Shown here piece by piece: positions 1,156-60,598 of a DNA stretch of 64,000 nucleotides. The DNA is from Bugula neritina. Lineage: Eukaryota > Animalia > Bryozoa. The notes under the pieces are model-generated. The model ran no database searches. It was not told the origin of the DNA and saw only the letters and a program-made list of their open reading frames with translations. The translations under genes and the position numbers were made by a program. Numbering within the stretch: position 1 is the stretch's first letter; every line of letters starts with the position of its first letter. The DNA is taken from NCBI GenBank assembly GCA_964035545.1, contig OZ037773.1, positions 1-64,000 on the forward strand, written 5' to 3'.

Positions 1156-2369
1156 TAAAAGCACCAAGTAAAATTTCATTTTGAATTTTAGGTGGGAGTG
1201 TAGCGTTTTGATCATTCCTTATTATATTACACACTACTACATTGCCTTAACTTTTGCTCAATCTATTCAAATCATCGCTTGCAGTGGCACAGGACAATTT
1301 ATCACCATTCACTCATATACTCATTTAGCTACTCACTTAGCTACTCACTTAGTCACAGCTTTTTTAAACCACAGATACACATGTATTCACTATTACAATG
1401 CAATGATTTTTGCTACCAGAATAACTGTCAGCTTTTGAGAGCTTGTAGCCAGAAATTATAGCAGCGAAGTTGTTTTATGTCTTCATGTCAGTCTGATGCT
1501 TTTCTCCACTAACTTTTGTAGTTCTCACTAGTCATTTTTGATTTTGTACATGATACATGTAGATATTTGAACTTTCACTATTACGACCTTATATATTTGA
1601 TTCTAACTGTTCCCAGGAAAGGTAATAGAGGTATGTTGAACATTGTTATGCAACAATTTTGTAATTAATGTTTTATGTTTCATTTTTCTAGTCATCAATG
1701 TCTATATTATTGAAATGCATTATTGTAGTTTCAATAAACATCAGCAAAACTCCAGCAGTGCAACCTATTATTAATAAACTGGGATAGAAGTCACACAGAC
1801 AATATTTTTCATTTACCACAAACTAAGAATAAGTTATGCATACTGTGTAACACCTAGAAAATTGTCCATGAAAGATAATTCCCACCCACATCAATCTCAC
1901 ACCATTGCTATTGCCATAATAGTAAAAGCTTTAACTTAATATTCATAATATATTCACTAGGTAGTAGGAAAATGAAGAGACTCACTAGCCCCGTAAATTT
2001 CAATATAGAAAGCATTATTGAAACTTGGTATATTTTTTCCCCAAGTTTATTTGCATGAATGTGATATTATTTATTTGTCAATACATAATATATGATTATA
2101 TATTGTAGTTATTAACAACACTAACAATAAATATTTTATCATTGTTTATGAAAGTTGTCGAGTCTCAACAATGATTTATCATGATATTCATTGCAACTTT
2201 TAACAAATTTGCAGTGTTCAATCAGCCCTCTCTGGTGCAAGACAGGCATCACTATACACACTGGTGTGAAGACTTCTATTAGGTCAAAAAAATTTCTTTA
2301 TAACTCATATAAACTTGCGGCACCGATAGCGGCATAATGACTTTTCATGCTTTAAAGCCGACTTTCGTA

Positions 2370-2375
<6 letters not shown>

Positions 2376-2432
<57 letters not shown>
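2376..2432. repeat. (TA)n microsatellite
   Basis: Pure TA run. It is preceded (~2298-2372) by a fragment resembling the arm of the hAT-like element (cf. 51001-51075). Confidence 0.95.
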
Positions 2433-2435
<3 letters not shown>

Positions 2436-2514
2436 TGCTGGCTAAAATGATAATACTGCCCGGAAATCTTACATCAGAGTAAAACTAGCAATCCTTCAAT
2501 TACTCTAATAACTG

Positions 2515-3410
2515 TACCACATTGTAAAGGACCTAAATATAATGTATTTTTATTGTAATAATATACTGAAACAAACAGTAATAAACTGTAATGCAGTGTA
2601 ATACATTGCAATAATATACTGAAATATACTGTAATTCATTGTAATATACTGAAACGTATTGAAATACACTGCAAGTCTGCAACAGACTGTAAAATACTGA
2701 AACAAACTGCAAGAGACTGTAGTCCAGTGCCATAAACTGTAATATACCCTAAAACACTGTAATACATTATTGTAGTACACTGAAATACAATGTCATACGT
2801 TGTAGTGCTATGTTATACGATGTAAAACACTGTAATACACAATTATGCACTGTAACACAGTGAAATATACTGAAAGATATTTTAAGATACTGTATTACAC
2901 TTTAATACTTTGTAATTTATTGCTTTAGATTGAAAAATAGTGTAATACATTCTAGTATATTTAAACATACTGTAATAGGCTATAATACAATGTAATAGAC
3001 TGAAACACACTTTAATACATTCTAGTATCCTGAAACCTACTGTAATAAACTGTAATACACTGTTATACATTGTCATAGACTGAAAGAGACTGTAATATAT
3101 TATTGTAATATGCTGCAGCATACTGTAATATACTGCAACACCCTGTAAAGTAATAAAACACACTTCAATAGACTGCACTAAAGTGCCATACACAGCAATA
3201 TAGCATTCTAAAACATTGTAATACATTGTGATACACTGAATCATACTGCAATACACTGTTATTCATTGTCATAGACTGAAATAGACTGTAATATATTGTA
3301 GTACATTGTAATATACCAAAATATGCTCTAATGAATTGTAATACACTGTACCACATTGTGATAAACTGAAACATACTTTAATAAATTGTAATGCACTGTA
3401 ATACATCAGA
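2515..3410 (+). repeat. Same 10-bp satellite, forward orientation
   Basis: actgtaatac-type units. Confidence 0.9.
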
Positions 3411-3419
3411 GTCTAACAT

Positions 3420-4600
3420 TCTATTGCAGTATATTACAGTGTATAACATTGTATTGCAATTTATTACAGTATAATCCAGTATATTACAGTGCATTAATAT
3501 GTGTTACATTAGGTTTCAGTATATTACAAAATATTACAGTATATTTCAGTGCTGTACACTGTATTACATTATATTACGGTGTATTACACTTTCTTGCAGT
3601 GCATTGGAGTTTATTACAGTATAATACGGCATATCACAATATAAAACTGTGTTTTACTGTGTATAACATTGTATCACAGTTTGTTGAAGTATATTTCAGT
3701 ATATTACAGTGTATTCAGGAATATCACAGTATATTGCAGTATCTTATGGTACATAACAATGTTTTACATTTTATTACACTATACTTCAGTATATTTTCCT
3801 GTGTTACAGTAGGTTACAGTGTATTACAGTATTATATTACAGTGTATTACAGCATATGACACTTTATTACTAATTATTACAGTGCATTCAAGTATATTAC
3901 AGTGTCTTACAGTGTTTTACAGTGTTTTATAGTAAATAACAGTTTATTATATTCTATTACCGTGACTTGCAGTTTCTTACAGAATATTACATTTTGATAC
4001 ATTTTCCTATAATGTATGACATGGTATTACACTGTATTAGAGTATAGCAAAAGTGTATTGCAGTTTGTTTCATTATATTACAATGTATTATAGTATGTTT
4101 TATTTTACTCTACAGTCTACAGTATAATACAGTATCTTACAGTGTTTTGATGATGTAGTGAAATTTATTACAGTATGTTACAGTACATTACAGTGTGTTA
4201 CCCTGTGTTTCAGTATACTACAATGCATAACAGTGTATATTAGTTTAACACCATGTATTATGATATATTACGGTGTTTTGCACAATATTGCAGTGTGTTG
4301 CAGTGTATTAAAGTATATTACAGCATGTCACAATTTAAAGTTGCGTATTACATTATGTTTCATCATGCTGCAGTGTATAACATTGTGTTGCACTACTTTT
4401 CAGTATTTTACAGGGTTTTACAAAGTATTTCAGTAATTGCAGTGTCCTGCAATATATTACATATCATTACAGTATATTAAAGTATATTACAGTTTATTAC
4501 ATTACATTACCATGTCTTACAGTTTCTTACAGAATAACACAAAATATGACAGGCTCTAACAAGGTATTATATTCTAATACACGATAATACAGTCTTTTAA
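3420..4600 (-). repeat. Same 10-bp satellite, reverse orientation
   Basis: gtattacagt-type units, the reverse complement of the left array; orientation flips at ~3405-3425. Confidence 0.9.
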
Positions 4601-8434: not shown

Positions 8435-8440
8435 GTAAGT
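8435..8440 (+). promoter_or_regulatory. Splice donor GTAAGT of a probable non-coding first exon of Ig-gene copy A
   Basis: aaat|gtaagtagttg; the downstream sequence is paralogous to 31801 onward and leads to the signal-peptide exon. Confidence 0.45.
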
Positions 8441-8776
8441 AGTTGTTGCTTTCCTAGTATTTTGTATGTGTTATAATAGCTGTTGATATATGCTGGATTA
8501 TTTTGGTCTGTAGTTGACACTGAATTTATGTACCCATTACTTTATTATGCTGGAGGGTTTAAATCACTTTTGAATTATGATAAAACTTTTTTTGTTTGAC
8601 TTATTTAGGATATTTGTGTAGTGAGATACATTACATCATATTATATTACATTTAACTTTCTAATTGTATTCAGCAAATCTTTTTTTGTAGATGAATATAA
8701 ATTTTAAAATTGTTAAAACTATTTTATCAAACTGTGCAATCCATTTAATTAACCACTACTTTCTGCTTGTATTATG

Positions 8777-9700
8777 TATGAGGGTGACTAAAAAAGTAAT
8801 GATAATTTTGCCACAAGTCAAGTTGTAATCAAATTACGACTTAATTTTTTTTCAACATAGTTTCTTGGCAAGCAAACACCTTTCTGTTATCTTGGTACTA
8901 TCTTTTTTATTTCCTCAGCATAAGATTCGGTAGATTGACTCAGTAAATTTTTGCACGAAGTAGTTTGGACCTTGCCATGAGTCTCCTTGTGAATGAATAG
9001 TTTCGGTGTTGAACTTAGAGCACCAAAGAAATTGTATTTACAAGATGAAGGACTAAGATTCTCCAATAGTGAGGGACCTAGTTGATGTTCTCAATGGTTT
9101 GATTGGCAGATTATGGTCTTCCAGTGTCTTTGTGGATATTACACTGTGATTACATGCCTATTCTCTTCTACTTAATCTCTTTTAAACTTAGATGAAATGC
9201 ACTGTTTCAATGGAGATGTTTATTAAATTAGCAAAGTTGTCGTTCAATGCTGTTACTTTCCTGACTGCCCTGACAAAAGGTTCTAATATCTCTAAATTGG
9301 TTGGTCTAGCCGCCTCTTCTGCTATTGGCCTACCTGACTCAAGTTCACTCTCCAAAGAGGTTGTTCAATCCTTAAAACTGTTAGCCTATTTGAAAACTGT
9401 ATTTTTTTTAAAAATTGTAACCATATTGAGCTTTCATTCCCTTATAAATTTCGCTTGAGCTGACTGCCTCATTTGACAAAAGCTTTAATATAGCTCTCTG
9501 GTCAATGTGAGCCAAGTTCCAGTGAGGCTGCCCTCATTAAGTATACGTTTTTAAATGAAAAGTATTTTCCCAAAGTTATTGAAATGATTACTGTGTGAAG
9601 ACAACTTCTAAAACAATATAATGTTAAAAAGATAGGCACGTATTACATTTATATTTAGTTCTATAAAGAAAATGTCTTTACTTTTCAAATCGCCCTGGTA
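8777..9700 (-). mobile_element. Non-autonomous mariner-like element (copy A)
   Basis: TA-flanked TIRs tatgagggtgactaaaaaagta / tacttttcaaatcgccctggta. The minus strand has a decayed mariner HTH (FKD*TTSLESELESGRP). Confidence 0.75.
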
Positions 9701-10041
9701 ATTCTTTAAGTAAGCAATATGTGTGTCTGTTGCCTTCTGAATCATTGATTTTAATTATCTAAAACTTGCTTAGTCTGTGACTTGGTTTGCTTTGACTTGC
9801 TGTTACCTCAACATGACTCTGGTCACACTGCTCTCTGTTGTACACACCAATTCATCAGTGCTCATTTGGTAGGCAACTTCATACAATATAATAATAGCAT
9901 TAGCTTTCATAAATTTCTTTTTTTAGCATTAATTTCTTCCATTTTTAAAGTTTTTTCGCTGGCAGGTTAATTAGCTATGGTATATCTCAGTTTATAAGAT
10001 TGTATTTATAATGTTTACTATACTTTGTTGTTTTTAGGAAA

Positions 10042-10099
10042 ATGAAGTTTCTCTGGATAACTATTTTCAAAGTATTGCTAGCATCTAGCTACACACTTG
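10042..10099 (+). pseudogene. Signal-peptide exon of truncated Ig-gene copy A (MKFLWITIFKVLLASSYTL-G)
   Basis: tttttag acceptor, ATG at 10042, phase-1 donor GTGAGT at 10100; near-identical to 33445-33502. No Ig exons follow in copy A. Confidence 0.7.
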
Positions 10100-10475
10100 G
10101 TGAGTTAATACTTCTAAAGCTAACATCTCCAGTATTTGTTAACTCTGGTTCTTGATTTTTAATGAATCACTTTAATGACACCTTTATTTTTTCAGATATG
10201 ATTCTTATGCTCACACAACTGTGACTAATGAAATACCTTGTTTCAACTTGTAATGTTTGAGAAATTCTAATGTAGCTGTTGGCTCGTTTAGCAGTTGTTT
10301 TCTGTTGTGTTTTTACACCTGCAGAGGCTCTCAATAAATAAAACAAGTTACTTGAAGACACTAAAAAAGACTCTACTTGGTTTTAAAAGAGTCATTTCTG
10401 TTTTTGTTGCCTTTTCTTGCAGTAGATGATGTCATAGGTCATGCAGTATTCCCAATTTTAATCTATTTATAGTAT

Positions 10476-10754
10476 TGTAGTGAGTACGTAATACGCGCGT
10501 CCCCTAAGTCCCCTTAGCCAATAAGAGTGCGTCATGTGATAACTCCCAGCGATGTGTAGAGTAGTAGAGAGTAGAGTAGTAGAATAGTAAAGATGTAGTG
10601 TTTTTTTTAATCCGTGTGCTTTTATATCTCTTTATTGTATTTAGTAGTAAATAAACCTCGTCTAATCTTATTGAAAACTTTTTTATTGATGTGGATACAT
10701 AAACTATAATTACAAGCCAGGAACTCACGCACAGTAATTGCACAAATTACTACA
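10476..10754 (+). repeat. E1 5' LTR
   Basis: tgtagtgagt...ttactaca, repeated at 17807. Confidence 0.95.
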
Positions 10755-10755
10755 G

Positions 10756-10773
10756 TGGTGGCAGCGGTGGGAT
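10756..10773 (+). promoter_or_regulatory. E1 primer-binding site (tRNA-Leu type)
   Basis: TGGTGGCAGCGGTGGGAT is complementary to the 3' end of animal tRNA-Leu(AAG/UAG), ...AUCCCACCGCUGCCACCA. Confidence 0.85.
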
Positions 10774-10816
10774 TACTAGCTACTATATGAAGACAATGGG
10801 AAAGTATTAGAACATC

Positions 10817-11818
10817 ATGGCCGAAAGTGCAGTGTCAACTGAAGAATGTGAGCGAGACATTATCATAAACCCTCTCGAGGCCGGAGAGGAGGCATATAGG
10901 AATACATTAGTGGCTCCCGTATTCACGGGCTTTGAAGATGTTGAACAATTTATTCGGGAATTCCGTGAAGTTGCAGTCATTACAAGATGGCCGCCAAGAG
11001 TAGCCCTGATGAAGTTACAAATGGCACTGACGGAAGAAGCCAAGCCGTACGGGTGGGGACCTAGCGTAGACGGGATCATTGCTACGCTACGGGCCCGTTT
11101 TGGCATACCTGTCGCCGACGCCAAGTTTCGTTTGCAAGGACTGCTCCACAAAACATGTACACCACTACCGGATCACGCTACTCTGGTGCAGAGACTGGCA
11201 CGGATCGCGTATAGCGATCTGCCAGAAACATACAGACGGCGCTATACATTCGAGGCCTTTGTACAATCCCTCAACAATTTGAACTTCCATCACCAGTTAC
11301 AAGCAAAGGGAGTAACCACGATCGAGGCTGCAATCCAAGAAAGCAAAGCTTAACTAAGAGCCGAGCAACTCTATAAAGCGGGAGAGACTATTCCACAGAC
11401 CCCTGGAGAACCCGACCACCCGGTCCGAATAGCGACCGCTACCGCTAGCCCTCCTGTGGAGATAGAGGTCGACCGCTTGATGACTAAACTGGGACAGTTG
11501 GTGGCAACCATGACATACAACAACCCAAGAGGATACAAGAGACCAGCAGTGAAACACCCCAGACCCACTATACGTTGCTGGAAATGCGGCACCAGGGGAC
11601 ACCGCCGCTCAAGCTGCCCACGACTCAAGAAGCAGCAGAAACCCCAGACCCCCCGGAGGCCCCCAGAGCTCCGCGGGCCCAAGCAGAGAAGAAAACGGGG
11701 TGGATACCACCAGGAGTCCGTACCGATCCAGCGGTACGTCCCCCCACCAGTGGCAGACACCTCGTTGAACCAGCCAATCAGGACGGCCACGAGAACCCTT
11801 CTCTCTACCTCTCACTAA
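10817..11818 (+). pseudogene. gag: E1 gag with in-frame TAA at 11351-53
   Basis: Homologous to E3 gag; CCHC knuckle CWKCGTRGHRRSSC. Confidence 0.9.
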
Positions 11819-11840
11819 CCGCTTCGGTCCGCTACCAGAA

Positions 11841-14800
11841 ATGGAGCCGACCAGCGAGGCCCCTCAGGGCATCGGAGGGGATCAGTACACCTCTCCGCAA
11901 GGAAAATCTCACTGGCCCCGCAAACCGCGGAACAAACGGGCACAGCCCCGATCGGCCGAGACCGAGCACGCTGGGGGAGAACGGGTACAACCTCACGGAG
12001 GTAGCTACTTCTTGCCAGGGAAGGTAGCTGGCAAAGCTGTCATTTTTCTGCTAGACTCCGGGTGTACCACTAATCTCCTCAGCTGTCAGGTCTTCGACAC
12101 CCTCCCCCCTAGGGAGAGGGGAGCCTTAGCTCCCTATACCGGGGAATCGGGCACCCTAGCTGACGGGTCACGGATTCCTTTCTACGGTATCATAGAGCTG
12201 ACTGGACGCGTCCGCTACCAGGCTATCCAAGAAACCTTCGTCATCAGCCAACTCGAAGAGGATGCTATACTGGGGATGCCGTTCTTAAAGAGACACGGGT
12301 GCCGTATGGACTTTAGCAAGTCAGCCATGCTAATGGCCGGCAGGGAACTCGCCTGTGTCGACAAGTTCGGTCGTCCCCTAGCGGGAGGCGTGCAGGTAGT
12401 ACGGAACTGTACTATACCCGGCCGCTCCCGGGCGACCGTTCACTCCAGAGTGAACAATAGCCAACTCTCGTGGTTAGGGGTTGTCGAAGGTGCGCACGCA
12501 AGAATCCAACTCGCCAGCAGTCTTAACCGGCTGACTGACCGAAGAGAGATCTTGGTGCAGTTTGTCAACCCCTTCTCCGAAGCGGTACAATTACCGTCAG
12601 GATCCATGCTGGGCCGCTTCCACTCCATCCAGGAGGAGGATATAGAGCCGTCGCTGGGAGCTGCGACGGAAGGTCCCCAACAGAGCCCGTCAGTAAGGCG
12701 GGGGATCGTCCCACCACACGTCCAAGAGCTATACCAGGCAGCGTGTGACGGCTGCGCGGGCAACGTGGAACGCCAGGCCATGGCTTAGTTGCTACGTGAC
12801 TATAGCGACGTGTTCAGCAGCGGGGACCATGACGTCGGCCTGACCTCGGCCGTCCGTCATGAGATACTACTGGGTGCAGGAACTACTCCTATTCGACAGC
12901 CCACTCGGAGGCTGGGACCCGAGAAGGGGAAGGAGGTCAGCCAACAAGTCCGGGATCTTTTGGACCGCGGCCTCATAGAGCCAGCACATAGTGCGTGGAG
13001 CTCGCCGGTCGTCCTGGTCCGAAAGAAAGACGGCAGTTGGCGGTTCTGTGTGGATTATCGCAAACTCGATAGCAAAACCAAACAGGACGCCTACCCCTTA
13101 CCCAGGATCGACGAATCTCTGGATGCCTTAGCCGTCAGCAAGTACTTCAGTACGCTAGACTTGTTGAGCGGCTACTTGCAGGTCCTCCTCAGTCCCGACG
13201 CCCAGGAGAAAGCGGCGTTCATCACGTGGGACAGCTTATGGAAGTGGAAAGTCCTACCCTTTGAACTGACTTCTGCCCCCGCCACATTCCAGAGGCTCAT
13301 GGAACAGGTCCTCAGCGGGCTCCATTGGAAGACACTGCTGATCTACCTCGATGATGTCATCGTGATCTCCCCAGACTTTCAGACACACATCAGTCGTCTG
13401 CGGGAGGTCTTCGATCGACTCAGAGGTGCCAATCTGAAGCTCAAACCCTCCAAGTGCGCCCTCTTGCAGCCAGAGGAGAAGTACCTGGAGCACGTCGTCG
13501 GCCGTCACGGTGTGGCAGCGGACCCTGAAAAGGTACGAGCTATAGAAGATTGGGTCACCCCCCAGGATTTGACCGGGCTACGGGCTTTCCTGGGGTTGGT
13601 AGGGTATTACCGGCAATACATACCAGACTTTGCGAGGGTAGCGCAGCCGTTGAATCGGCTCACCTGGCAGTGGACTCCCGTCGAACAGAGAGCGTTCGAC
13701 TGCCTCAAGGGCCGCCTACTAGAGGCCCCTATCTTAGCCTACCCAGACCCTGCCCTGGAGTAAATCCTAGATACTGACGCCAGTGACCAAAACGTCGGCG
13801 CTGTGCTGTCTCAGGTGCAGGAGGGCCGCGAAGTAGTCGTGGCCTATTACAGCAAGTCTCTCTCGCCCACCGAACAAAATTACTACACTACCCGAAAGGA
13901 GCTGCTGGCAGCAATCAAGTCGGTGAAGCATTTTAGACCTTATCTATACGGCAGGAAGTTCCGCTTGCGGACCGACCACGCCTCCTTGATTTGGTTGTGC
14001 AAGAGAGCAGAATCGTTCAGCCAAGTTGCCCGATGGCTCGAGGTCCTGGCCGAGTTCTCTTACCGGATTGAGCATCGGCCCGATAAGAAGCACGGCAATG
14101 CTGACGGACTGAGCCGGCGGCCGGACGAGGGGTGCAAACAGTGCCTCAACATCGAAAAAAGGAATGGGGGTCCCCCAAAATTCGAATTGCGGGCACTGGA
14201 CCACCCTGGAAAAGAGTATGACTGGGACCAGGGTCAACTCCTACAGAAGGCCACTACGCCCCCGGAGACTATCCAAAGCCTCCGTGCCAATCCTGTCTTG
14301 GCTGATAACGTCAGAGAGTTACGAAGATTCCAAAAGAACCTCCCCGGAGTAGTAGCCGACGTGTATCGGGCCAAGAAGGAGGGGCGACGACCCAGCGAAG
14401 AACAACTGCGGCAGGGATGCACCAAGTTACGGTTGTACTGTCAACGTTGGGACTCCCTGCGGATCGGGCCAGATGGTCTGCTGACCATCACAGTGGCCGC
14501 CTACAACAGCCAGTACGGGAGAGAGAGGGTGATCTGCCCAGCCGCCATACACCGGGAGTTAGTATGGGACACCCACAAACAGGCCCACGCCGGGGTAAGC
14601 AGGGTGCTCTCCAAGTTACAGCTCCGGTGGTACTGGCCCGGCATGGAGCGTGATGTACGGCTTAGAGTCAAACAATGCGAAATCTGGCAGGCCAGCAAGC
14701 ATGGCCGTCTCCCTGGCAAAGCGGGGCGGCGTAGGCTATATGCTGGAAGGCCATGGCAGGTGGTAGCTGTTGACCTAGTCGGACCCATACCCCTCACCCC

Positions 14801-16007
14801 CAGAGGAAACAGTTGGATACTAGTATTAACCGACCACTTTACACGGTGGGCAGACGCCCTGGCTATTCCAGATGCGTCCGCCCCGACGGTGGCCAGGGTA
14901 CTAGACCAAAATGTATTCTGCTACCTCGGACTACCCGAACAGATACATTCGGATCAGGGGGCTCAATTCCAGTCTCAACTGTTGAGCGACCTCTGCCGCC
15001 TCTGGGGAGTAAACCAAAGCAGGACCACTCCATACCATCCTTAGGGCAACAGGGTGGTAGAACGCAACAACCGCATGTTGGGCGACGCACTCCGCAGTCT
15101 GCTCCTCGGCCGGGGTCAGGAGGAATGGGATACGGTACTACCGCAAGTCATGCAGGCCTATCGTAGTACACCACACACCAGTACGGGGGAAACCCCTAAC
15201 CTCCTGATGCTTGGTCGAGAGACGCGAGTGCCCGACCACTTCACATACCACATCCCAGAGCAAGACTATACTATCCACGAGTATGCCAGCAAATTGATAG
15301 AGGACCTGAGGGCCGCACATGAAATACTGCGAGTAAAGCAGTGGCAGGTACGGCAGGAGGACTCTCAGGAACCACCCCTCTATCAAACTGGGGACTGGGT
15401 GTGGATGATCAACTACCGTAGGCGTCGAGGACAAGCGGCTAAGCTCCAGCCTAAGTTCGTGGGACCCTACGTAGTAGTTGAGGCGATGCCCAATCATACG
15501 TACAAGTTGGAGCGCTCTGGACAGGTCTCTGTCCAGAATGAAGCCCGCTTGAAACCGTATTGGGCCAGTCCAGGAGCAGCAGGAGCAGGCCCCCCCCCTC
15601 CCCCGTTGTTGGAGCCCAGGAAGCAGACAGCAACGCGCGGGCGGCAACGGCATGGACCAGAATATGAAGTGGTTGTGCCGCGGGAGGAGGACTTGTTGAG
15701 GCAGGAAACGCCACTCCCATCAACGGAAGTGCGCCCACCGCCCCCAATACCAAGTCTACCCCCACCACTTCCGGATCCGCATCCGCGTCCGGAAGTGCAA
15801 AACCCCCCCATGGGAGGGGCTCCATCCGGAGACAACAGCGGAGAGGGAAATGCCATCACCAACGACGGGCCGGAAACACCACAAGTGGAGCAAAATAGCC
15901 CACCAGTGAGTACACCGCCCCGACCAACAACTACACCCTCCTCCCCAGCTAATACGTCACCTCCCCTGGAACGGGGACAGCGTACTAGACAACCCCCACA
16001 TACTTGA
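11841..16007 (+). pseudogene. pol: E1 pol (PR-RT-RNaseH-IN) with stops at 12786, 13761 and 15042
   Basis: LDSG protease, YLDD RT, DTDAS RNase H, DLVGP/HSDQG/VERNN integrase, GPY motif; all fragments lie in one frame. Confidence 0.95.
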
Positions 16008-16279
16008 AAGACTTCGTATGTGACCGCGTTACAAACGGCAGTTACGAAAGTCCAGCTGGGCGCCGTACGGAGGGACTGGCAGCAAAGCGTGGGAGTTGTG
16101 AACACCACGGAAATCTCAACTTTTGCGAAGGCGGAGTAGTAAACAAAACTACTACGCCCGGGGCAAATAGTTCCAGCCGTGCGCAACAACTACGCTGCCC
16201 AGCCTTTTCGTACGCTGACGTTGTCAAAGGCAGACGCATCCAAACTCAATCCACAGACATCTAAGCTTGAACGCTGAGT

Positions 16280-17424
16280 ATGATTACAAATACAGGGTTC
16301 TCAGGTAAGCTTGCCTTGACCTAACATTCCCACTCATGGAATCAGGTCTACCATCAGTTAGTTCTGATTTAATCGCCCTGATTGAATCACAACTACTGGG
16401 GACTGAGTCTTACGTGAAAGGCGACGAGAACATAACAATGGCCGATGATCTACTAGATCGGGAGCTTGACGTTATGTCACTCGGTCAGTCTACACCACAC
16501 GACACAGTCCCTCGAGTGCCATCTAAAAAGATGTATGACTCTCAGACTAGGAACAGTCGGTTGTCATCAGAATTATGGTGTAAAGATCACACTCGATCTA
16601 ACAATAATTCTGCTCTTTTAGATATCACTCCCTCTACTCTTCCCCGTGACACATAACCATCAGAGATGGCTTGGGATGAGGAACCTGCTCCCGTCACACT
16701 GCCAGAAGTACTTTTAAGCCAGTCATGCTGGGTTACCCAAGACACGGAAGCACTTATTCGAGAATCTAAAGGCGATGACCAATGCACCACCTGCCGCTTG
16801 TGCCAACTCCATTTCATCACCCCTCGCCGACTCCCGGTTCACGTCCCCCAACATTATGTCACTACCTTTTTTCCCTGTGGTGAATATAGTTACCACAGGG
16901 ACTACATCCTCCGTCACCAGCGAACCATGGAATGTCACATTGGACATCTCTATGAAGTTGACGAACATTCCTTTCCACACTTCCTTGATCTCATCCGACC
17001 CTTCATATCAGACCCGACTCGCTACGAACGGCTGCGTCAGGAGTTCCCCGCACCCAGGGCCATCACACAAGGACCCTGCCCTAAATCACCCGGATATAAG
17101 AGACCACCCATGCCCCGTTCATCACCCCCCGCACGCACAGTGCCCCACCCCGACTCCATACCCAGAGTCGTGCTACGACGCATCGAAGTGCTACAGCGAT
17201 GGCGTCCCTCTCCTCCCGTCTCCCCCAGGCTTTCCCGTAAACGATGTTGGTCATCTTCGTCTCCCAACCGACACTCTGTCCCCGCCCGGAACCTAAGAGA
17301 AGCGGAAGAACGGATACGGAAACTAGAGAAAGAAGTGCAAAGGTTGGCACCGAGAATCTCTGCCGCCGCATCTGAACTCTGGGCTCTCTCTGCCTCTGTA
17401 GCCCAAATGAAAGGAAGTGCTTGA
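16280..17424 (+). pseudogene. E1 spliced accessory gene (zinc fingers + coiled coil): exons 16280-16304 and 16622-17424; internal TAA at 16654
   Basis: ATG+8 codons+G|GTAAGC ... TCTAAC ... CTTTTAG|AT restores the frame; CRLC-x12-H-x3-H finger; C-terminal heptads. Confidence 0.75.
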
Positions 17425-17795
17425 GACGGCGTCCCCAAACCTCCTTCCCCTACTCGTCCTACCCCCCACTCTTGATGGTACCGCAGGTGGTGCCCCATCT
17501 CAAACTTCTCTCACGCCCGGTGCTAACGAACAATCTCCCAGTGTGACAATCATATTATAGTAACCTACAAGTATACATCTCTTAGCCCTATGGGTCGTTC
17601 ACTTATAAGTGCCTCTCCCGTCAGTGTCATAGTGTGTGTTTATACTGTTATATTTTTTTATATTTTTTTTTACTGTATATAGTTATGTTTCTTTCTTTTA
17701 TGTACCATACGCTCTCTCAGTCTTATAGTTTTTTTGTAATATTTTTGTATTAGTACTAACTGTATCTGTGTTATCAGAAAGTAGGTCTTTCTGCT

Positions 17796-17806
17796 GGGGG
17801 GGGCGG
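17796..17806 (+). promoter_or_regulatory. E1 polypurine tract
   Basis: G-run plus CGG directly before the 3' LTR. Confidence 0.85.
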
Positions 17807-18083
17807 TGTAGTGAGTACGTGATACGCGCGTCCCCCAAGTCTCCTTAGCCAATAAGAGCGCGTCATGTGATAACCCCCAGCGATGTGTAGAGTAGTAGAG
17901 AAAGCGTACTAGAATAGTAAAGATGTAGTGTTTTTTTAATCCGTGTGCTTTTATATCTCTTTATTGTATTTAGTAGTAAATAAACCTTGTCTAATCTTAT
18001 TAAAAACTCCTTTATTGATGTGGATACATAAACTATAATTACAAGCTAGGAACTCACGCACAGTAATTGCACAAATTACTACA
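17807..18083 (+). repeat. E1 3' LTR
   Basis: Direct repeat of 10476-10754. Confidence 0.95.
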
Positions 18084-18439
18084 GTATGTTTAAACCAATA
18101 CAAAGGATTTAATTATTCATCTTTTTTATCACTACATTAGTTTTGTGTTTGCTTTGTTTATCAAAGTATTATATAAAAGTCTTAATTATTTGGCCAAAGA
18201 TTTGTTTTTCATCTCCACAATTGAAGTAGTGCTAGTAGTAGAATAGTGATAGTTCTGGGAAACTTTGTACTCAATGAGCCCATGCACAAAATGAACTGCA
18301 GGGGTAATTCCCATATTTAAGGGACACCCCTTTCTAGCACACATTAGCTCAAAGGATATAAAATTTGTCAAGACCATGACAATATTTCTTAAAAATGTTA
18401 AAAGCAAGTTTTAAAACTTTCAAAGCTTTTAAAACTCTA

Positions 18440-23649: not shown

Positions 23650-25030
23650 TTGTATATATATTGTGGTAATAAATCACGGCTTCGGCCTCTTCCGTTAAGC
23701 AACTAACTTGAGCACGTTCTCTCTTTTTCACAATAGCTGAAATAATATCACAAAACAACACAAAACATGGTGCCCCAAGTATAATTATTATTATTATTAC
23801 ACTGAAACAACATGGAGCAATTACTAGCACCAAAACCATTAGCAGATGGACCAAATCTACCTTAGGAATAGAAGATTTTTTCAACTGCCACATCGAAGGA
23901 TACAGCCGAAGGCAAAGTGAAAACTGCATACCTACTTAGAACTATCGGTCGCCGAGGCAACCAAATATACGAATATTTCAACTGAACTGACAACAATGAC
24001 AAGACTGACTACAACAAAGTAGTGACGCAATTTGATGCCTACTGTAAACCAAGAATAAACTTAGTGGCTAAGACTCACTCACTACTGACTTGTAAGCAAG
24101 GAAATAAAACTATTGACAAATTTTTGACTGAACTACATACCATTGCAGGACTATGTGACTTATAAGACATGTACAAACGACTGATACTACAAGCACTGAT
24201 ACTGGGAATTGAAAGTGACAAGATTAAAAAGAAACTGTTTGACTTGACTGACTCTGACTTTGACAAAGCAATTGAGCTCTGTAGACGAGAAGAAGCATCA
24301 GCTATTGACTACAAGACTATGACTAATGATAACACTTATGGAATCGAACAAGTGAACTTGGTGAAACATAGACCTCCGACTCATCAATATCACTCTAATT
24401 ACACTCGTAACACTGATAAACACAGAGAACAGCTTTCACACACTCGCTCTCAGCCCGACGTCAGAAAATCAGTTGGTGCTTCTAGGTGTGGAAACTGTGG
24501 AGGCAACCATTCACCTCGAGCTTGCCCAGCATATGGGAAACAGTGCAATCATTGCAAGAAGTTTAACCATTTTGCCAAGTACTGCAGGTCACGCATGCAT
24601 CATCATTGCAGCTCAACCGAAACAGCCAATCAAGTCACCTGGAATTACTCTTCAGACAGTGGCTCTCAAAATGTTAGTACTATATCTACTACAGTATGGG
24701 ATCGTAAACTATTAGCGACTCTCACTGCTAAGCAGGCAGATACTACTTATGACATTGAATTTCAATTTGACACTGGTGCATCATGCAATACTTTGAATAC
24801 TGTTGACTACGGCAAGCTAGGGAGACCGAAACTTACACCAATTGACACTGTACTAACTTTTTATGACCAGAGCAAGTGTGCACCACTAGGGTGGACACGT
24901 ATACAGATACTAAACAAGCAAGGACGTTACACTACATTAAAATTCCTAGTTGTGGAGACCACCCAACACAGCTTGCTGTCATGGAAATCATGTTTGCACC
25001 TGGACTTATTACAAATGCCCAGCACCAAAG
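23650..25030 (+). mobile_element. 5' remnant of a Mag-like Gypsy element (LTR end, PBS-like motif, decayed gag, protease)
   Basis: ...aaaaca|TGGTGCCCCAAGT at 23768; gag from ATG 23812 with stops; twin knuckles CGNCGGNH...C and CNHCKKFNHFAKYC; FDTGASCN protease in the same frame (24169-25041). Confidence 0.75.
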
Positions 25031-25202: not shown

Positions 25203-28200
25203 CCACGCCAATCCGGTCCGGGATAGGACTCGGAAGACAACAGAAGAGACCTCTCCAGAGTCGACCTACATCGAGTGGCACGCAAACCGGAGATCTCGGA
25301 GACCGAAAGGCCTACCCGATCCTCCTGCCCTGCCACTCGATACCCGGATGCAGCTAGAAGAAACCGGATGGCAGGCACCTCGGAGATCTCGGAGACCGCA
25401 AGGTCTACCCGATCCTCCAGCCTGGCCACTCCGTAACCGGTTCGCGGGGTTGCCCGAGGAGGTTGTGGAGGAAGATTCAGCTTACTCGCAAGAGTACCCC
25501 AAGCTACCCTCCCGACCTCAGAAAACCCCCGTTGCCTCTAAGACGAAAAGGAGGCCCGCTGTGCGGACCCAAGTTGTGTCTCCCCCAGAGACTGACCGCT
25601 CCAGGAGCACCCAGCCGTACGGAAGCAGCTACTTCCTGCCCGGGAAGATTTCGGGTAAAGCTGCCACATTCCTACTGGATACTGGGTGCACTACCAACCT
25701 GCTGAGTCGGCGTCTCTTTGACACTCTTGGGGCTCGAGAGCGGGCGAGCCTCGAGCCGTATGAAGGTGCGCATGGTACGTTGGCGGACGGATCATGCATT
25801 CCTTTCTACGGCGTCATCTCACTGCCTGGACGCGTCCGTGATCAAGCAATTCACGAGACGTTCATAGTCAGCCAGCTGAAGGAGGACGCCATCTTGGGAA
25901 TGCCCTTCCTGGAGAAACACCAGTGTCACATGGATTTCCAGAAGTCAGTGGTGGTGATGGCTGGGAAGGAACTTGTCTGTGTTGACAAGTTTGGCAGACC
26001 CTTGGTAGGCGGAGTCCAGGTAGTGCGGGACTGCACAGTTCCGGGGAGGTCCCAGGCGACTCTCCGATGCAGAGTCAACTGCAAGGGGATCGCCGGCCTG
26101 GGGATGGTTGAAGGAACGCACGGAGCCATCCGACTAGCAAACAGCCTGAATCGGCTAGATTGTCGGCAAGAGCTCCTCGTGCAGTGCATCAACCCCTTCA
26201 CGGAACCTGTTCGATTATCGGCCGGAGCGCTGGTGGGGAAGTACCACTCCATCCAGGAGGCGGATGTGGGTCCGGCACTGGAGACAGTGACCGACACCCA
26301 GGGGAACCCCCCTCACACCAGACGAGGAGCAGTCCCGGAGCACTTGGCTGACCTGTATGGCGGAGCATGCGGAAACTGTACGAGTAGTACTGAACGCCAA
26401 GTACTGGCTCAACTACTCGCGGAGTACAGTGATGTCTTCAGTCGTGGCGATGGAGACATGGGGCTGACAAAGATCATCTCCCACGAGATACCCTTGGCAG
26501 CCGGCACCACTCCCATCAGGCAGCCTACCCGACGTCTAGGCCCGGAGAAGGAGAAGGAGGTGAGCCGACAGGTACAGGATCTTCTGGACCGGGATCTGAT
26601 TGAGCCTGCCCACGGTGCGTGGAGCTCCCCAGTGGTCCTGGTCAAGAAGGATGGTAGCTGGAGATTCTGTGTGGACTACCGCAGACTCAACAGCGTTACC
26701 ATCCAGGACGCCTACCCTCTCCCACGGATAGATGAGTCTCTAGATGCCCTCGCGGGTAGCAAGTACTTCAGTACTTTGGATCTGCTTAGCGGGTACTGGC
26801 AAGTGCCCCTCAGTCCTGATGCCCAGGACAAAGCAGCATTCATTACTCGCGACGGGCTCTGGAAATGGAAAGTACTGCCATTCGGACTAACGTCCGCTCC
26901 GGCAACATTCCAACGACTCATGGAGCAAGTCCTCAGTGGGCTACACTGGAAGACTCTCCTCATCTATCTGGACGTTGTCATTGTCATCTCTCCGGACTTC
27001 TCGACTCATGTCAGTCGTCTACGGGAGGTCTTTGACCGCCTCCGGGCTGCTGGACTGAAGCTGAAGCCCTCCAAGTGTGCACTCCTGCAGCCAGAAGTCA
27101 CGTACCTGGGCCATGTGGTTGGCCGTGATGGAGTCGCTACCGATTCAGAGAAGGTACAAGCTGTGAAGGAGTGGACTGTCCTCCGTGACCTCCCTGAGTT
27201 GCGTGCTTTCCTGGGCCTAGTAGGGTACTACCGGCAGTACATACCTGGGTTCGCAGGAGTGGCTCAGCCGTTAAATCGGCTGACCGCAAAGGGAGTCCGG
27301 TGGCAGTGGACACAGGAAGAGCAGCAGGCATTCGACCACCTCAAGCAACGGCTAATGGAAGCGCCAATCCTGGCGTATCCTGATCCAGCCAAGGAGTACA
27401 TCCTGGACACCGACGCCAGCGACCACAGCGTGGGAGCCGTCTTGTCTCAAGTCCAGGGTGGAAGTGAGGTGGTCGTGGCTTACTACAGCAAGACTCTCGC
27501 GGCCGCCGAGAAGAACTACTGCACCACTAGGAAGGAACTCCTAGCAGTAGTCAAGGCGGTCAAGCACTTTCGGCCATATCTGTATGGGAAATCGTTCCGT
27601 CTGCGAACAGACCATGCATCACTGATATGGCTGTGTGAACGTGCAGAGCCCTCGAGCCAGGTGGCTCGTTGGCTAGAGATTCTTGCCGAGTTCTCTTACC
27701 GGATAGAGCACCGTGCAGGCCGGAAGCATGGGAACGCCGACGGCATGAGCCGCCGGCCGGTAGAGGACTGTAAGCAATGCCTGCACATTGAACAGCGGGA
27801 CGGGGGACCCGCTCGCCTTGACGTGGAAGCAGAACTAGTGGAGGGCACCGCCTACCAGTGGGAGCACGGCCATCTTCGGACCGAAACCCACCAGGACGGT
27901 GTCCAGGCGCTCCACGCCAACCCTACTCTGCACCAGAACGTCAAGGAGCTGTGCCGACTCCAGGAGACGCTACCCGGCGCGGTAGCGGACATCTTCCGGG
28001 CCAAGGAGGAGGGCCGACGGCCTAGCGAGGAACAGCAGCGGTAGGGAGGCGTTGAGTTCCAACTCCTCTGTCGTCGCTGGGATGCCCTCAAGGTCAGTCC
28101 TGATGGCCTCCTGATGATAACGTTAGCAGCAGACAACCGCCAGCAGAAGAGGGACCGCGTCGTCTGTCCATGCGCCCTCCGGCGGGAACTGATCTGGGAC

Positions 28201-30480
28201 ACCCATAAGCAGGCTCATGCTGGAGTCAGTCGGGTCATCAGGTGTCTGCGGCTGCGTTGGTATTGGCCCGGAATGACTCGGGACGTACGACTGCGGGTAC
28301 GGCAATGCGAGGTCTGCCAAGCTAGCAAGCATGGCCGCCCCACGGAAACCACTGGTCGACGCCGGCTGTACGCTGGTCGACCGTGGCAAGTAGTGGCGGT
28401 AGACCTCGTCGGGCCTATGCCGTTATCCGCCAGAGGGAATACCTGGATACTGGTGCTCACGGACCACTTTACCCGGTGGGCGGATGCTCTGGCTATTCCA
28501 GACGCAACCGCCCCCACGGTGGCCCGGACCCTGGACCAACATGTGTTCTGTTACCTCGGTTTGCCCGAGCAGATACATACGGACCAGGGTGCCCAGTTCC
28601 AGTCCCAGCTCATGGGAGACCTCTGCCGGATATGGGGGGTGAACCAGAGTCGGACCACCCCATATCACCCGCAAGGGAACGGAGTCGTCGAGCGGAACAG
28701 GATGTTGGGTGACGCGCTCCGGAGCCTGCTACTTGGTCGAGGTCAGGAAGAATGGGACGTGGTGCTGCCGCAGATCATGCGGGCTTACCGCAGCACACCA
28801 CACTCCGCCACGCAGGAGACCCCAAACTTCCTGATGCTAGGCCGAGAGACGCGGGTCCCGAAACACCTGACGTACCATGTTCCTGCCCCCGAGTCACCGG
28901 TACACGAGTATGTGGAGGGTCTGATGGACATCATGGGCAAAGCTCATGATGCGCTGCGTACCCAGCAGTGGCAGACCCGCACAGAGGACTCGGAGGAGCC
29001 CCCGTTGTACCAAGTGGGAGACTGGGTTTGGATGGTGAGCTACCGTAGGCGACGCGGACAGTCGGCTAAGCTTCAGCCCAAGTTCGTCGGCCCCTACTGT
29101 GTAGTGGAGGTGCTGCCCAACCACACGTACCGTGTGGAGCGCTCTGGACAGATCTCTGTCCAGAGCGAGCAGCGCCTCAAACCTTACCATGCCAGCCCAG
29201 ACGCGGTGGGTCAGGCTCCACCCCTCCTGGAGCCCCACCATCAGCCCAACCGTCGAGGACGGGCCACCCAGCCCCGAGAGGTGGAGATTATGGTCCCCAG
29301 GGAGACGGACCAGGAGCAGGCCGACTTGATAGAGCAGCTGGAGCGGCAGCAGAGAGCGGAGCGGGAACAGGAACAGCGACAAGCCCTTAGATCACAACCC
29401 TTTTCGGGGGAGGACACCCCCACCCCTGTACGGGGTGAAGACGGGGACCCCCCTACTAGGGCAGCCCAGGAGCCACCAACACCACCAGTGCCTGTTCCAC
29501 TTGAGAGGAGCCAGCGGCCAAGAAGACCTCCCAGGTACCTGGCAGACTATGCTGTAGGGCACCTGGAGTGGCCCCCTCCTGAGGACGACCCCCCCCACAC
29601 TGACTATCACCCCATCTTGGTTGGAAATTCCCTCCATCACCCCAGAGAATTCCACCAAGAAAAAGAAATGGCCGACCGAATTTCGGAAGACACTCGATCA
29701 CGCGAGTTGTCTTTTCGAAATCCGGGGGAAATTCCCACGAGCCACGCGACTCGGGCTTTAGCAGGTAAAACTTCTGAAGCACGAGGTTCGGCCATTTCTC
29801 ATTCTGATTTCACACAGCTCGCACGGCAGTTACAGCTCAAGCTAAATTCTGATTCTAATACTCATTTTGATTTTAACACTGTTCTCCAAACGCTATCAGC
29901 AGCTATGGGAATTACTTTACCAGACACGCAATCAGGTATTTCTTCTAGATTAGATCCTCCAGTTACGGAGTCTAGTCAAACTAAAGTAGACTGGTCTTTA
30001 CTAGACTTACTTGGTTCTGATTTCTTAGAACCGGAGGCCGAGATGGATCTTGGAGATGACTCTGCCATTGACACTTTGTTAAATCACGACGTAGGCTCAG
30101 TCAATTTCTGCGATACACCTCGGCCCTCGGTTTTTAATTTAACTCCATACACACCTGTGCCGAATTTCGGCGATAGTGAGACCGGCTTTTCACAGCCTCT
30201 ACTATCTATTCTAGAGGAGCGTATGGACGTTGAAGAGGCCAGTCGGTCCGACTCCCCTCTCCCACCGGCCCTTGCTTCGGCTTCTACCAGCCAGCAGGCC
30301 GCAACCTCCTCCACAGAGGTGTGTTCCGCCATCGTTAGTGGCCCTGACCCCAAACCGGTCGAGCTCCAGCTCACGGCCGGGGAGGAGCAGGGCATCCTAC
30401 ACGGCGACCACCTGCCAGCAGAAGAAGACAACTCCCCAATACTGGCCCTGCCTCAGGCCCTGGTCGCCCGCCAGTATTAG
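25180..30480 (+). pseudogene. pol: E2 pol with TAG at 28042, YLDD>YLDV, and a long open C-terminal extension
   Basis: LDTG protease, RT, RNase H, HHCC/DDE integrase; 25180-28044 and 28114-30480 share a frame. Confidence 0.93.
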
Positions 30481-31140
30481 GTGACTGGACCCACCAATCT
30501 TAAGATTGGTGAAGCTTGCGGTGAGCCGGGCAACCGCATCTGCCATGAGTGTAAGAGGAAGTTCTCCTCTGCACGGCGGTTGCGTGTACACGCCCCACAG
30601 CACTACATCAACGTGTTTTGCCCGTGTGGGGAGTTCTCCTACCAGAGAGACTATGTGTTGAGACATCAACGCATAGCTCACTGCCACACGGGCTACACGT
30701 TTGCTGTAGACCAGGCCTCCTTTCCCAAGTTTCGGGACCTGGTGCTGCCACACGTGGCGGATTCCCATAAACGGGCTGCTCTCGCCCTGGGATTCCCCGC
30801 GTGTAGGCCTGTTCGGGAAGAAGAAGGGGAGCCCGCCGCGACACCCCAACCGGCAGCCACCCAGCCACTTCGGGTCATGCTGGCACGAGTCGGACCAGGC
30901 GCCAGGACCGATTCATCGGACCTGGGCCCCCGACCCTCGGCGGCGGGCGAGAAGCAGACGCACCGCCAGCGACGTCCTACCCATGGTGCCACCGACCGCT
31001 CCAGACACCAGACGTCGGCCCAGTTAGCAGAGGAGGTACAACATCTCCGCCGGCAGCTCCGCAGGTATGAGGAAGAGCTGGGGCAACTCCGGAGACGTGT
31101 TAGCCGCCTGGAGCGGGGCCGATCTGGAGACCGCCGCTGA
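30481..31140 (+). pseudogene. E2 zinc-finger/coiled-coil accessory ORF (upstream TAG aligns to a conserved Trp)
   Basis: CHEC-x12-H-x3-H; CPC-x12-H; LAEEVQHLRRQLRRYEEELGQLRRRVSRL. Confidence 0.8.
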
Positions 31141-31437: not shown

Positions 31438-31800
31438 TGTGGTAAAATTATGTTGTGTGTGTGTGTCCTCCGAAACACCGATATGCCGATTCTCGGCATA
31501 TCGGAATACCGAAGTACCGAAATGCCGGATTCGGCATTTCGGATTCCCGAAGTGCCGATATTCGGTATTTTGGGCCTCCGATCTCGGCAAACAAAGGAAT
31601 GTCTTTGTCCTGCATGTATATAAAAGCCAGCGAGTTCCAGTATAGTTCAGTCTACTACTGGAGCTCGCTGGACAAAGACCATTGATTCACTCGGACTATA
31701 CTACAATAAAGCTATCTACCTTCTACCTTATTTCTCGCCTTGTTTCTCATAACAAGCATGTAAAGCACTAGTTTCATTCACAACCCACAAAACTATCACA
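31438..31800 (+). repeat. E2 3' LTR
   Basis: TGTGGT..ATCACA after the G-rich PPT; TATATAAAA at 31617-25 and an AATAAA downstream; host paralogous sequence resumes exactly at 31801. Confidence 0.85.
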
Positions 31801-52563: not shown

Positions 52564-53640
52564 CTAGAGTCCTTGTTGGGCACGCCGGTGCTTGGCTTGG
52601 CATGTACGCAGTTTCCGTTTCATACGGCATACGGATCCCTTCAGCTGGAAGAGTCCTGTGGTAGTGTTAAGTAGATCTGGTGCCAGCTGGGTGAACTCTT
52701 CTTGTAGTCGTAGGAGGCGTTCTTCTACTGTAGCTAGTCGTACTGGGTCTGGGGACGGTGTCCGTCTGCGGCGTAAGGGTGGACTGGGGGACCTGGTCCG
52801 TCTCTTCGCCGGGGTAGGGGAGATCTCTCCTTCTTCTGGATATGTAGTTTCCTCGGGGGTGTATGTAATTGGAGGGCGGTCAGACACCAACGGAGATTGT
52901 TGTCGGGCGTTGTCTAACACACGTTGGAACCCCGAGGATAGAACTGCTAATAGCATGGCCTTCTTTACCAGAGGTCGTATATATGTGAGGAACTCCGGGT
53001 ACAGCTTAGCGTCGACCACATAGTTTTCTCCAGGGAAACAGCCCGCCGCTCTGTGTCTGGTGACGGGGTAGGGATACACATCATTGTACCCGCAGGGGCA
53101 GAAGGTCAGTAGGAGATGAGCATTGACGTGTAGTTTAAGGGAGCGGTGGGAGGCGCAATCTTCACCACAGATCTGGCATCTCGTCCGTCCTCTGGACCCC
53201 CAGGCTGTTTCTATTTCTTCTTCGGTTTGTGGAGACACCCACCGCCAACGGCGGCGTAGTGGCTCAGGCCGGTCACCACTAGCATAGTCCTCCGGATACG
53301 GAGCGGGAAGTGTTCTATCCCGTACCCTGGTTGTAGCGGGTCGAGTGTAATCTGAAAAAGTTTCAACAGTGTTAGTACAGTACACTGCTGTGTTGTCAGC
53401 TTGAACAGCTTGGCAACTCCTAATTCAGTTACCTCGTAGAGATTAATGATAGTGAATAGTCAGATAGAACCGTATTGCAATGAGATTATAAAAATCTCTA
53501 AGTCAAACTGAGTTCTTACTACGGTATTTCACTAACCTATCTCCAGCTCGATTGACTCAGTGAGTCAGAGCTGAGCGATGCAATCTAGTTTCGTATTAAG
53601 ATATAGTTAACTCACCCCACGATCTGTTGTCGTAAGACAT
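52564..53640 (-). CDS. E3 spliced accessory protein (270 aa): C2H2 + atypical finger, basic/SP region, coiled coil; exons 53640-53616 and 53351-52564
   Basis: ATGTCTTACGACAACAGATCGTGGG|GTGAGT; TACTAAC branch point (53371-77); TTTTCAG|AT. The spliced 813 nt are open; the unspliced frame has a stop. Confidence 0.8.
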
Positions 53641-59136: not shown

Positions 59137-59148
59137 CTTGGATGCACT

Positions 59149-59166
59149 ATCCCACCGCTGCCACCA
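59149..59166 (-). promoter_or_regulatory. E3 primer-binding site (tRNA-Leu type)
   Basis: Same TGGTGGCAGCGGTGGGAT as E1. Confidence 0.85.
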
Positions 59167-59167
59167 C

Positions 59168-60119: not shown

Positions 60120-60598
60120 GGCACGTTTCAGCCGATTTATAGACTCCTGGAGGGACTTCAACTCGCTGCTTTTACTCTGAGAGCCAACAGATGCACTTCC
60201 CTCTCGAGCTCGTTGGTCCTTACTTCGACTTCCCGCAGGTTACGGGCCAGTGGAGAGGAACGGGAGGGGAACTGATGAGGTCGATGTCTCCGGATCTTTA
60301 CAACATAATTCTAGTGACAATCGACTGTTACTAGTCTGAGAGTCACAACTTTTATAAGGCACTCCAGAGACCAGTTGATTACGTGTAGACTGACCAAGAA
60401 TGACAGTGTCTAGCTCGAGATCTAACAGATCGTCGGCCATTACTGCGTCCTCATCGTCATTCACGTTAAACGTGGTCCCCAGTAACTCTGATTCAATCCG
60501 ACTGATTAGTTCAGAATTAACTGGCATCGGGCCTGTTTCCATAGATAGTAACACAAGACTTATACAGGCTTACCTGTGAACTTGGTATTGATCGACAT
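60120..60598 (-). pseudogene. E4 accessory-gene remnant: mini-exon 60598-60574, acidic ORF and coiled coil; zinc fingers deleted
   Basis: ATGTCGATCAATACCAAGTTCACAG|GTAAGC; ORF 60240-60554 matches E1 16336-16656; ARNLREVEVRTNELEREV matches the E1 zipper. Confidence 0.7.

Follow-up and report, generated by a model that had tools for sequence, protein, structure and literature searches.

An open reading frame that starts at its own ATG inside an intron raises the question of whether it encodes a protein segment at all, and whether retention or removal of that intron could switch a gene between two products. Such a frame begins at position 16336 of the 64,000-nt stretch of DNA analyzed here (the window). 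The initial annotation described it as an acidic, activation-domain-like segment joined to zinc fingers and a coiled coil when the intron is retained, and suggested that the spliced form could act as a dominant negative. Comparison of sequences indicates that the ORF at 16336 encodes the N-terminal part of ORF3, a third gene that is conserved behind pol in Ty3/gypsy elements. ORF3 is built of an acidic part, two zinc fingers and a coiled coil.

Ty3/gypsy elements of the window

The window is AT-rich DNA of animal type and contains four Ty3/gypsy LTR elements (E1 to E4), each of which carries ORF3 or a remnant of one between pol and the 3' LTR. The parts of E1 outside ORF3 are the following.

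10476-18084, + strand: whole element E1
10476..10755, + strand: 5' LTR of E1, sharing 94.7% identity with 17807-18084 (281 nt compared)
10756..10773, + strand: primer-binding site of E1; the same 18-mer follows the E3 5' LTR at 59166
10811..16270, + strand: gag and pol of E1, both interrupted by stops (ORF list)
17807..18084, + strand: 3' LTR of E1, pairing with the 5' LTR

The primer-binding site of E1 is presumably tRNA-Leu-like. LTRs, a primer-binding site and a short target duplication, as expected of Ty3/gypsy elements, are present in both E1 and E3, the 4-bp duplication of E1 being GTAT. Pfam finds zf-CCHC in gag and the order PR-RT-RH-IN in the pol of E3. The top PDB match of the reverse transcriptase is Ty3 RT (E 5e-95), with 322 bits versus 125 for the next, retroviral, enzymes. 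At the DNA level the pol of E1 is 69-78% identical to those of E2, E3 and E4. E1 is a decayed copy, as seen in the stops of gag and pol and in the divergence of its LTRs. E3, on the minus strand, has 100% identical LTRs, which indicates a recent insertion. No env was found in these elements, and the reading of the third gene as env-like was rejected, there being no env-type Pfam match.

Several other features of the window were recorded. E3 (51972-59474) sits within the 3' LTR of E4 and has a 4-bp duplication, CATG. A 2.2-kb host repeat, 89% identical between copies, flanks E1 and E2 (8438-10475 plus 18080-18231 versus 31800-34008), and E1 is inserted inside one of these copies. A long degenerate 10-bp tandem array occupies 1-4400. 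Neither a 5' LTR nor a primer-binding site of E2 was found in 23800-24250, and a different, decayed gag-like sequence lies upstream. The tail of pol past the integrase (16001-16234, 53690-53900, 60650-60875) is constrained, with a dN/dS of 0.37, and in E1 and E3 it bears a C-x2-H-H-x4-C motif and a SYADVV motif.

Anatomy of ORF3 in E1

The third gene of E1 is divided as follows.

16280..16304, + strand: ORF3 micro-exon, 25 nt (ATG, eight codons and one base), with length and phase as in E3 and E4
16305..16621, + strand: ORF3 intron, 317 nt, GT..AG, with a branch-like TCTAAC at 16597-16602
16336..16621, + strand: intron-encoded N-terminus of the long form, 95 codons, with an acidic Leu-rich core at about 16354-16482
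16622..17424, + strand: ORF3 exon 2, comprising a linker, the zinc-finger domain (about 16710-17040), a Ser/Pro/Arg-rich stretch and the coiled coil (about 17287-17421)
16654-16656, + strand: premature TAA in exon 2, truncating the long and short forms of E1

The intronic ATG opens a frame of 106 codons, and this frame does hold the acidic and Leu-rich peptides that had been quoted for it. Its described continuity with exon 2 extends over the first 11 codons of that exon, where the TAA stops E1; past this stop the same frame runs for 255 codons that include the fingers and the coil. Both E1 and E4 are broken, so no full ORF3 product is made from either copy. The segment had also been said to show acidic residues interspersed with Leu, Phe and Trp. 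It is acidic and rich in Leu, but Phe and Trp are scarce, and Leu makes up most of the hydrophobic residues in codons 1-50. If left unspliced, the micro-exon is a 14-codon upstream ORF that ends at 16324. The possibility that the intronic frame is a chance ORF was considered and rejected on the basis of shared Met starts, gap-free conservation and frame survival in relatives.

Predicted splicing of ORF3

Donor sites were ranked by a simple U1-pairing score devised for this analysis. The E1 donor at 16305 ranks first among 415 GT sites of the element and the E4 donor at 60573 first among 279, and the donors of E3 and E2 are within the 7-8 best of their elements. The acceptors of E1, E2 and E3 each rank first of the 13-16 YAG sites tested (1 of 14 in E1), with exon 2 staying in frame. 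In E1, E3 and E4 alike, ATG, eight codons and one base are followed by GT. The hallmarks of a GT-AG intron (donor, branch site and acceptor kept in phase) are conserved, the acceptor of E4 having been lost. The residue pairs at the acceptor fit A|G in 75/75 E1-type and 20/20 E3-type motif-bearing proteins, a fit shared by 7/252 adjacent positions. These sequence features support an intron in ORF3. An alternative acceptor near 16664 was rejected for lack of support, the junction of the protein P0058 corresponding to 16621/16622.

P0058 starts with eight residues homologous to the micro-exon peptide of E1, joined to exon 2 exactly at the 16304/16622-type junction and in the predicted phase, as read from the protein alone. 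This joined form occurs in 1 of 297 proteins, the number reached after a third homologue search, whose 13 new proteins contained no second junction. The contig of P0058 is 7.9 kb long, and a long form, P0081, belongs to the same 90% cluster. P0058 is probably a copy made from spliced RNA; its junction may also stem from a splice-aware gene call. Contigs of one sequencing run of unspecified kind gave 15/85 joints on E1, 0 of them at the proposed intron, a result that speaks neither for nor against it.

Layouts of ORF3 in E2, E3 and E4

The other three elements present ORF3 in the following arrangements.

29905..31140, + strand: ORF3 of E2, with the first exon at 29905-29935, fingers and coil, and a TGA at 30478-30480, in frame with the upstream pol
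29936-30214, + strand: ORF3 intron of E2, 279 nt, in-frame and containing the acidic part, its junction being predicted only
52564..53640, - strand: ORF3 of E3, with the micro-exon at 53640-53616, the intron at 53615-53352 and exon 2 ending at 52564, encoding the short form alone
60240..60598, - strand: ORF3 remnant of E4, with the micro-exon at 60598-60574, the donor at 60573 and the acidic ORF from 60542

In the layout of E1 and E4, which has a 317-nt intron, the frame of the micro-exon stops before the second ATG, 56 nt downstream. Because the micro-exon frame is closed before that ATG, the long form would need leaky scanning or re-initiation. In E2, with its predicted intron, and in the proteins P0097, P0141, P0198 and P0200, the frame of the first ATG stays open across the donor and on into the acidic part. 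An intron that lies wholly within an open frame and has a length that is a multiple of three is called an exitron. This definition fits E2 (279 nt, predicted) and, judged from the protein alone, P0097, P0141, P0198 and P0200; it does not cover E1 and E4, where the intron is 317 nt long and contains its own ATG, or E3, where the intron is closed.

The E3 intron had been reported as closed by stops, and indeed its 264 nt hold stops in all three frames; TACTAAC at 53377 is a textbook branch site. Among the 57 matches of the E3 lineage, none has an acidic N-terminus, and conservation begins at the acceptor. Since this lineage keeps only the short form, the short form would have a job of its own; and since E3 was recently inserted without an acidic part, activation by ORF3 would be dispensable in the E3 lineage.

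The counterpart claimed for E4 at 60240-60554 is present on the minus strand, with its ATG at 60542 rather than 60554. It leaves the family pattern after about codon 84, and the acceptor and the fingers are lost. DNA similarity between E1 and E4 begins at the ATG (75% over 257 nt), and the 25 non-coding intron bases upstream of it match at 9/25 positions. The acidic echo noted in E2 was recovered at the protein level, where a profile of the intronic ORF matches proteins of the E2 lineage, best of all P0173 (E 2e-6). E1 and E2 show no significant DNA match at the intronic ORF, and the profile did not pick up E2's own frame.

Further observations concern the surroundings of ORF3. The integrase of E2 runs into ORF3 without a stop (28045-30480), and P0173 and P0105 likewise extend upstream in frame; the E2 lineage may carry an IN-ORF3 fusion. 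A TATA-like run in conserved Pro-Tyr-Lys codons of E4 (about 60355-60340, - strand), altered in E1 (16518-16530), sits where nucleotide-level constraint starts, and an internal promoter inside the intron at this run is possible. Integrase identity is 86-87% among E1, E3 and E4 and 77% for E2. The identities of the finger domain (35% for E1-E3, 46% for E1-E2) are discordant with pol, which suggests exchange of an ORF3+LTR module or very fast evolution of ORF3. On a finger-domain tree of 44 rows the acidic part changes 8 times, compared to 9.5 in shuffles, a count that does not separate gain from loss. In P0099, P0133 and P0178 the finger domain occurs twice in tandem, and P0229 (1145 aa) is a fusion of a protease, an acidic stretch and a finger domain.

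The long form among relatives

A search with exon 2 of E1 yielded 80 proteins out of 738 candidates. From the same Met, 24 of these 80 read into the fingers, it being noted that openness of the frame was how these records were selected and that few host species may be represented; the intronic frame is carried at least in part by 48 of them. Six further same-Met starts were found in the 13 proteins added by the third search. Among finger-spanning matches (n=69), 24 are open for 140 codons on the N-terminal side and 24 for 140 codons on the C-terminal side. The 95 intronic codons align without a single gap in 25 rows, and identity in this alignment is 0.74-0.76 for the intronic codons, 0.75 for the finger domain and 0.52 for the linker of exon 2. 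As judged from these alignments, the long form is a trait of the family, and a long and a short form of ORF3 very probably both exist. The claim of spliced and intron-retaining isoforms is supported by the 24/80 long frames and the exact junction of P0058; what does not hold is simple retention from one ATG in E1 and E4.

Codon-level constraint on the intronic frame

No DNA relative was confirmed among the stretches matched in metagenome (78), viral (13) and genome (43) contigs, so the codon tests rest on the comparison of E1 with E4. The integrase of this pair has a dS of 1.0, a dN/dS of 0.08 and a pS of 0.55. For the whole intronic ORF the values are dS 0.50, dN 0.30 and dN/dS 0.59 (p 0.06), with a bootstrap interval of pN/pS that reaches 1.08. 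Codons 1-50 have a pS of 0.44 and a pN of 0.26 (ratio 0.47, p 0.027), and codons 51-84 have a pS of 0.24 and a pN of 0.23, the integrase counts behind the p-values of the two halves being approximated from the pS of 0.55. The acidic half looks constrained as protein and the second half as nucleotide sequence. Synonymous and nonsynonymous changes, which the initial annotation had put forward as a check, give modest codon constraint (dN/dS 0.47-0.59), part of which lies at the nucleotide level.

The kind of constraint was also followed across relatives. In the intronic part, shared substitutions are no more conservative than singletons (p 0.17, 0.35), compared to p 4e-6 in the finger domain. In the acidic columns 19/20 variant states fall outside the D/E class, and class retention per cell is 82% there and 96% in the hydrophobic columns. 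The net charge of codons 1-50 stays between -9 and -13, with 0-2 Lys/Arg. It appears that composition is conserved, as expected of an activation domain; this is not a proof of one.

Activation-domain composition

Two rules were taken from PMC10550315. The relaxed rule asks for a 39-aa tile with a charge of -13 to -8 and at least six W, F and L in total, and the strict rule for a charge of -9 or lower and at least seven W, F, Y and L. In the same paper the precision of the rule on human factors is estimated at 0.19-0.71. The relaxed rule is satisfied by 26/26 intronic segments and the strict rule by 19/26; E1 satisfies the relaxed rule only, E2 both. The corresponding numbers for exon-2 parts are 5/26 and 0/26, and no tile passes among 3,244 Gag/Pol controls. 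In the E3 lineage, where 52 of the 57 matches were scored, the relaxed rule is satisfied anywhere in the protein in 2/52. Distant homologues satisfy the rule upstream of the fingers in 6/18 and downstream in 2/29, and 12/18 have no acidic tile upstream of the fingers. A helix is predicted at residues 7-22 with a pLDDT of about 57, and residues 20-119 stay below 50, the underlying alignment being shallow (24 rows). We lean slightly towards the prediction that the long form activates transcription.

The shared fingers and coiled coil

Both forms contain the finger domain, whose Cys/His ligands are near-invariant in a 106-row alignment and whose model from that alignment has a pLDDT of 89. Finger 1 is canonical, C-x2-C-x12-H-x3-H. 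Finger 2 is non-canonical, C-x-C-x12-H, with a variable last ligand. The Pfam C2H2 score of 19.7 bits is below the cut-off of 25.2. The top fold matches are tandem C2H2-DNA complexes, matched weakly (Z at most 4.0, rmsd 2.7, 57 residues), and Foldseek gave no match at E 0.001 in the PDB and viral libraries, the best E being 0.16-0.8. Compared to Kaiso/ZBTB33, SALL4 and CTCF, 50-57 residues align with an rmsd of 2.3-2.7 and the pattern of finger 1 is alike; ORF3 differs in its odd finger 2, an extra conserved helix before the fingers and a strand/helix after them. The finger domain is found in 257 clusters (threshold of 50% identity; E up to 0.001), none of which is named. Downstream of it are an RKRR basic cluster, SP repeats and a 50-residue helix. 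This C-terminal helix, the coiled coil, is modeled with a pLDDT of 95; its homodimer prediction scores 0.03 against a mark of 0.32. The model of full-length ORF3 (pLDDT 51) was too weak for a fold search.

Proposed mechanism and alternative explanations

We propose that an acidic N-terminus is encoded within the intron, so that these elements likely make two products: a long form, predicted to be an activator, and a short, spliced form that lacks the acidic part. We assign this reading a probability of about 0.5. ORF3 would be a nuclear DNA-binding regulator of its own element, with its two zinc fingers binding DNA in the LTR or an internal promoter of the element. The acidic Leu-rich helix and the tail of the long form would recruit host coactivators, resulting in positive feedback, and the spliced form would occupy the same sites without activating. 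Translation of the long form in E1 and E4 would begin at its own ATG, reached by leaky scanning or re-initiation past the short upstream ORF. The arrangement of E2 and the P0198-type lineage would be exitron-like, with direct read-through from the ATG of the micro-exon. The short form probably works in the nucleus on its own, as the E3 lineage keeps this form only. It might also damp the long form through competition for sites or pairing of the coils, a secondary role that is possible but doubtful.

ORF3 could instead act after transcription, as CERV or Rev do, binding RNA of the element with its fingers and Arg/Ser-rich stretch, oligomerizing through its coil and using the Leu-rich acidic helix as an export or docking signal for unspliced genomic RNA. 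No donor in the element is stronger than the one located here, so genomic RNA must escape splicing, and the RKRR cluster and SP repeats after the fingers would suit such a role, as would an intronless copy like P0058, which is compatible with leaky control. According to PMC10309623, CERV of Cer1 likewise comes from a spliced mRNA of an LTR element, has a Cys-rich region and a zipper, and is required for export. We consider this function unlikely, given that no similarity to the H/M/G domains of CERV appeared, that the fold resembles DNA-binding C2H2 pairs, if weakly, and that activation-domain composition is found in 26/26 segments. Another explanation is that the spliced form alone is made, that the intron is kept as a DNA or RNA element (splice signals, an internal promoter, or a packaging or export element) and that the open acidic frame is left over from a longer ancestral protein. 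This would agree with a dS in the intronic ORF that is half that of the element (0.50 vs 1.0), with the equal pS and pN of codons 51-84, the non-conservative intronic substitutions and the TATA-like run in the Pro-Tyr-Lys codons of E4, and also with a micro-exon frame that differs from the frame of the ATG in E1 and E4 and an E3 lineage that manages without the acidic part. It is nevertheless a distinctly unlikely explanation when set against an invariant Met1 exactly where DNA similarity starts, 95 codons without an indel in 25 rows, survival of the intronic frame equal to that of exon 2, similarity to the E2 lineage at the protein but not the DNA level, and a pN below pS in codons 1-50.

Improbable as well is an account in which the short form serves to inactivate the long one by pairing with it at the coiled coil that both contain. 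The fingers and the confidently modeled 50-residue helix are common to both forms, and intronless foamy proviruses interfere with the wild type. However, the E3 lineage conserves the short form though it has no long form to inhibit, and the 35% identity between E1- and E3-type finger domains makes cross-inhibition doubtful. A purely dominant-negative short form, the strict version of the initial idea, is the weaker interpretation, because the E3 lineage, with 0/57 acidic N-termini, keeps the short form by itself. It is very unlikely that ORF3 is a chromatin-tethering or anti-silencing module, in which the acidic patch would dock a host chromatin factor and which would target integration by read-through from pol or protect the element from host silencing. 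The in-frame, stop-free passage from integrase to ORF3 in E2, the upstream extensions of P0173 and P0105 and the much faster divergence of ORF3 than of integrase (35-46% vs 77-87%) would be compatible with such a module, but pol ends before the micro-exon in E1, E3 and E4, and a dedicated ATG micro-exon is conserved.

Comparison with known systems

LTR retrotransposons are generally seen as passive users of host transcription factors, and dedicated transactivators mark complex retroviruses. If the proposed mechanism is true, env-less gypsy elements would regulate themselves in a manner that resembles the switch of complex retroviruses, their activity would be tied to the splicing state of the host, and they would offer a small testable system for the origin of complex-retrovirus-like regulation. 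Even without activation, the finger-plus-coil protein would be an accessory gene that has not been described before and is retained in widely divergent elements. More tentatively, and with the odds somewhat against it, a widespread env-less animal Ty3/gypsy group may encode its own zinc-finger transcription factor and splice the activation domain in or out, as an independently evolved counterpart of Tas/Bet; intronless copies and closed-intron lineages would be repressor-only, and ORF3+LTR would be an exchangeable specificity module.

Two products per gene set by one intron or deletion are found in P-element IVS3, adenovirus E1A 13S/12S and HERV-K rec/np9, which are activator/repressor pairs under splicing control. 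Their proteins are unrelated to ORF3, and none of them is an env-less Ty3/gypsy ORF behind pol. No description of ORF3 was found in the openly accessible literature searched, PMC11952523 included; a repeat library might already list ORF3.

CERV, from the Ty3/gypsy element Cer1 of C. elegans, is described in PMC10309623 as an accessory nuclear protein with a spliced mRNA, a Cys-rich region, a zipper and a candidate basic NLS. ORF3 is likewise an accessory gene of an LTR retrotransposon with a spliced form, a Cys-bearing region and a coil. CERV has H/M/G domains and exons in common with gag. ORF3, in contrast, is located behind pol; it has a micro-exon of its own and C2H2-like fingers, and its acidic part is optional.

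The closest analogue is foamy-virus Tas (Bel-1)/Bet together with the intronless deltaHFV provirus, a system of which ORF3 is not a member. Bet changes frame relative to Tas. Unlike Bet, both forms of ORF3 share the fingers and the coil in one frame, and unlike Tas, whose activation domain is C-terminal (residues 253-282), ORF3 has an acidic part that is N-terminal and intronic. Elements with ORF3 also differ from foamy viruses in their Ty3-like RT and in that no env was found. In foamy viruses, according to PMC13220597 and PMC1224871, unspliced RNA gives a transactivator of the acidic class, removal of a 301-nt intron gives a form without it, and the intronless copies derive from a spliced pregenome. 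As with Tas/Bet, ORF3 lies near the 3' LTR, has an intron of about 300 nt (317 nt in E1 versus 301) and loses on splicing the activator part, activation being predicted here.
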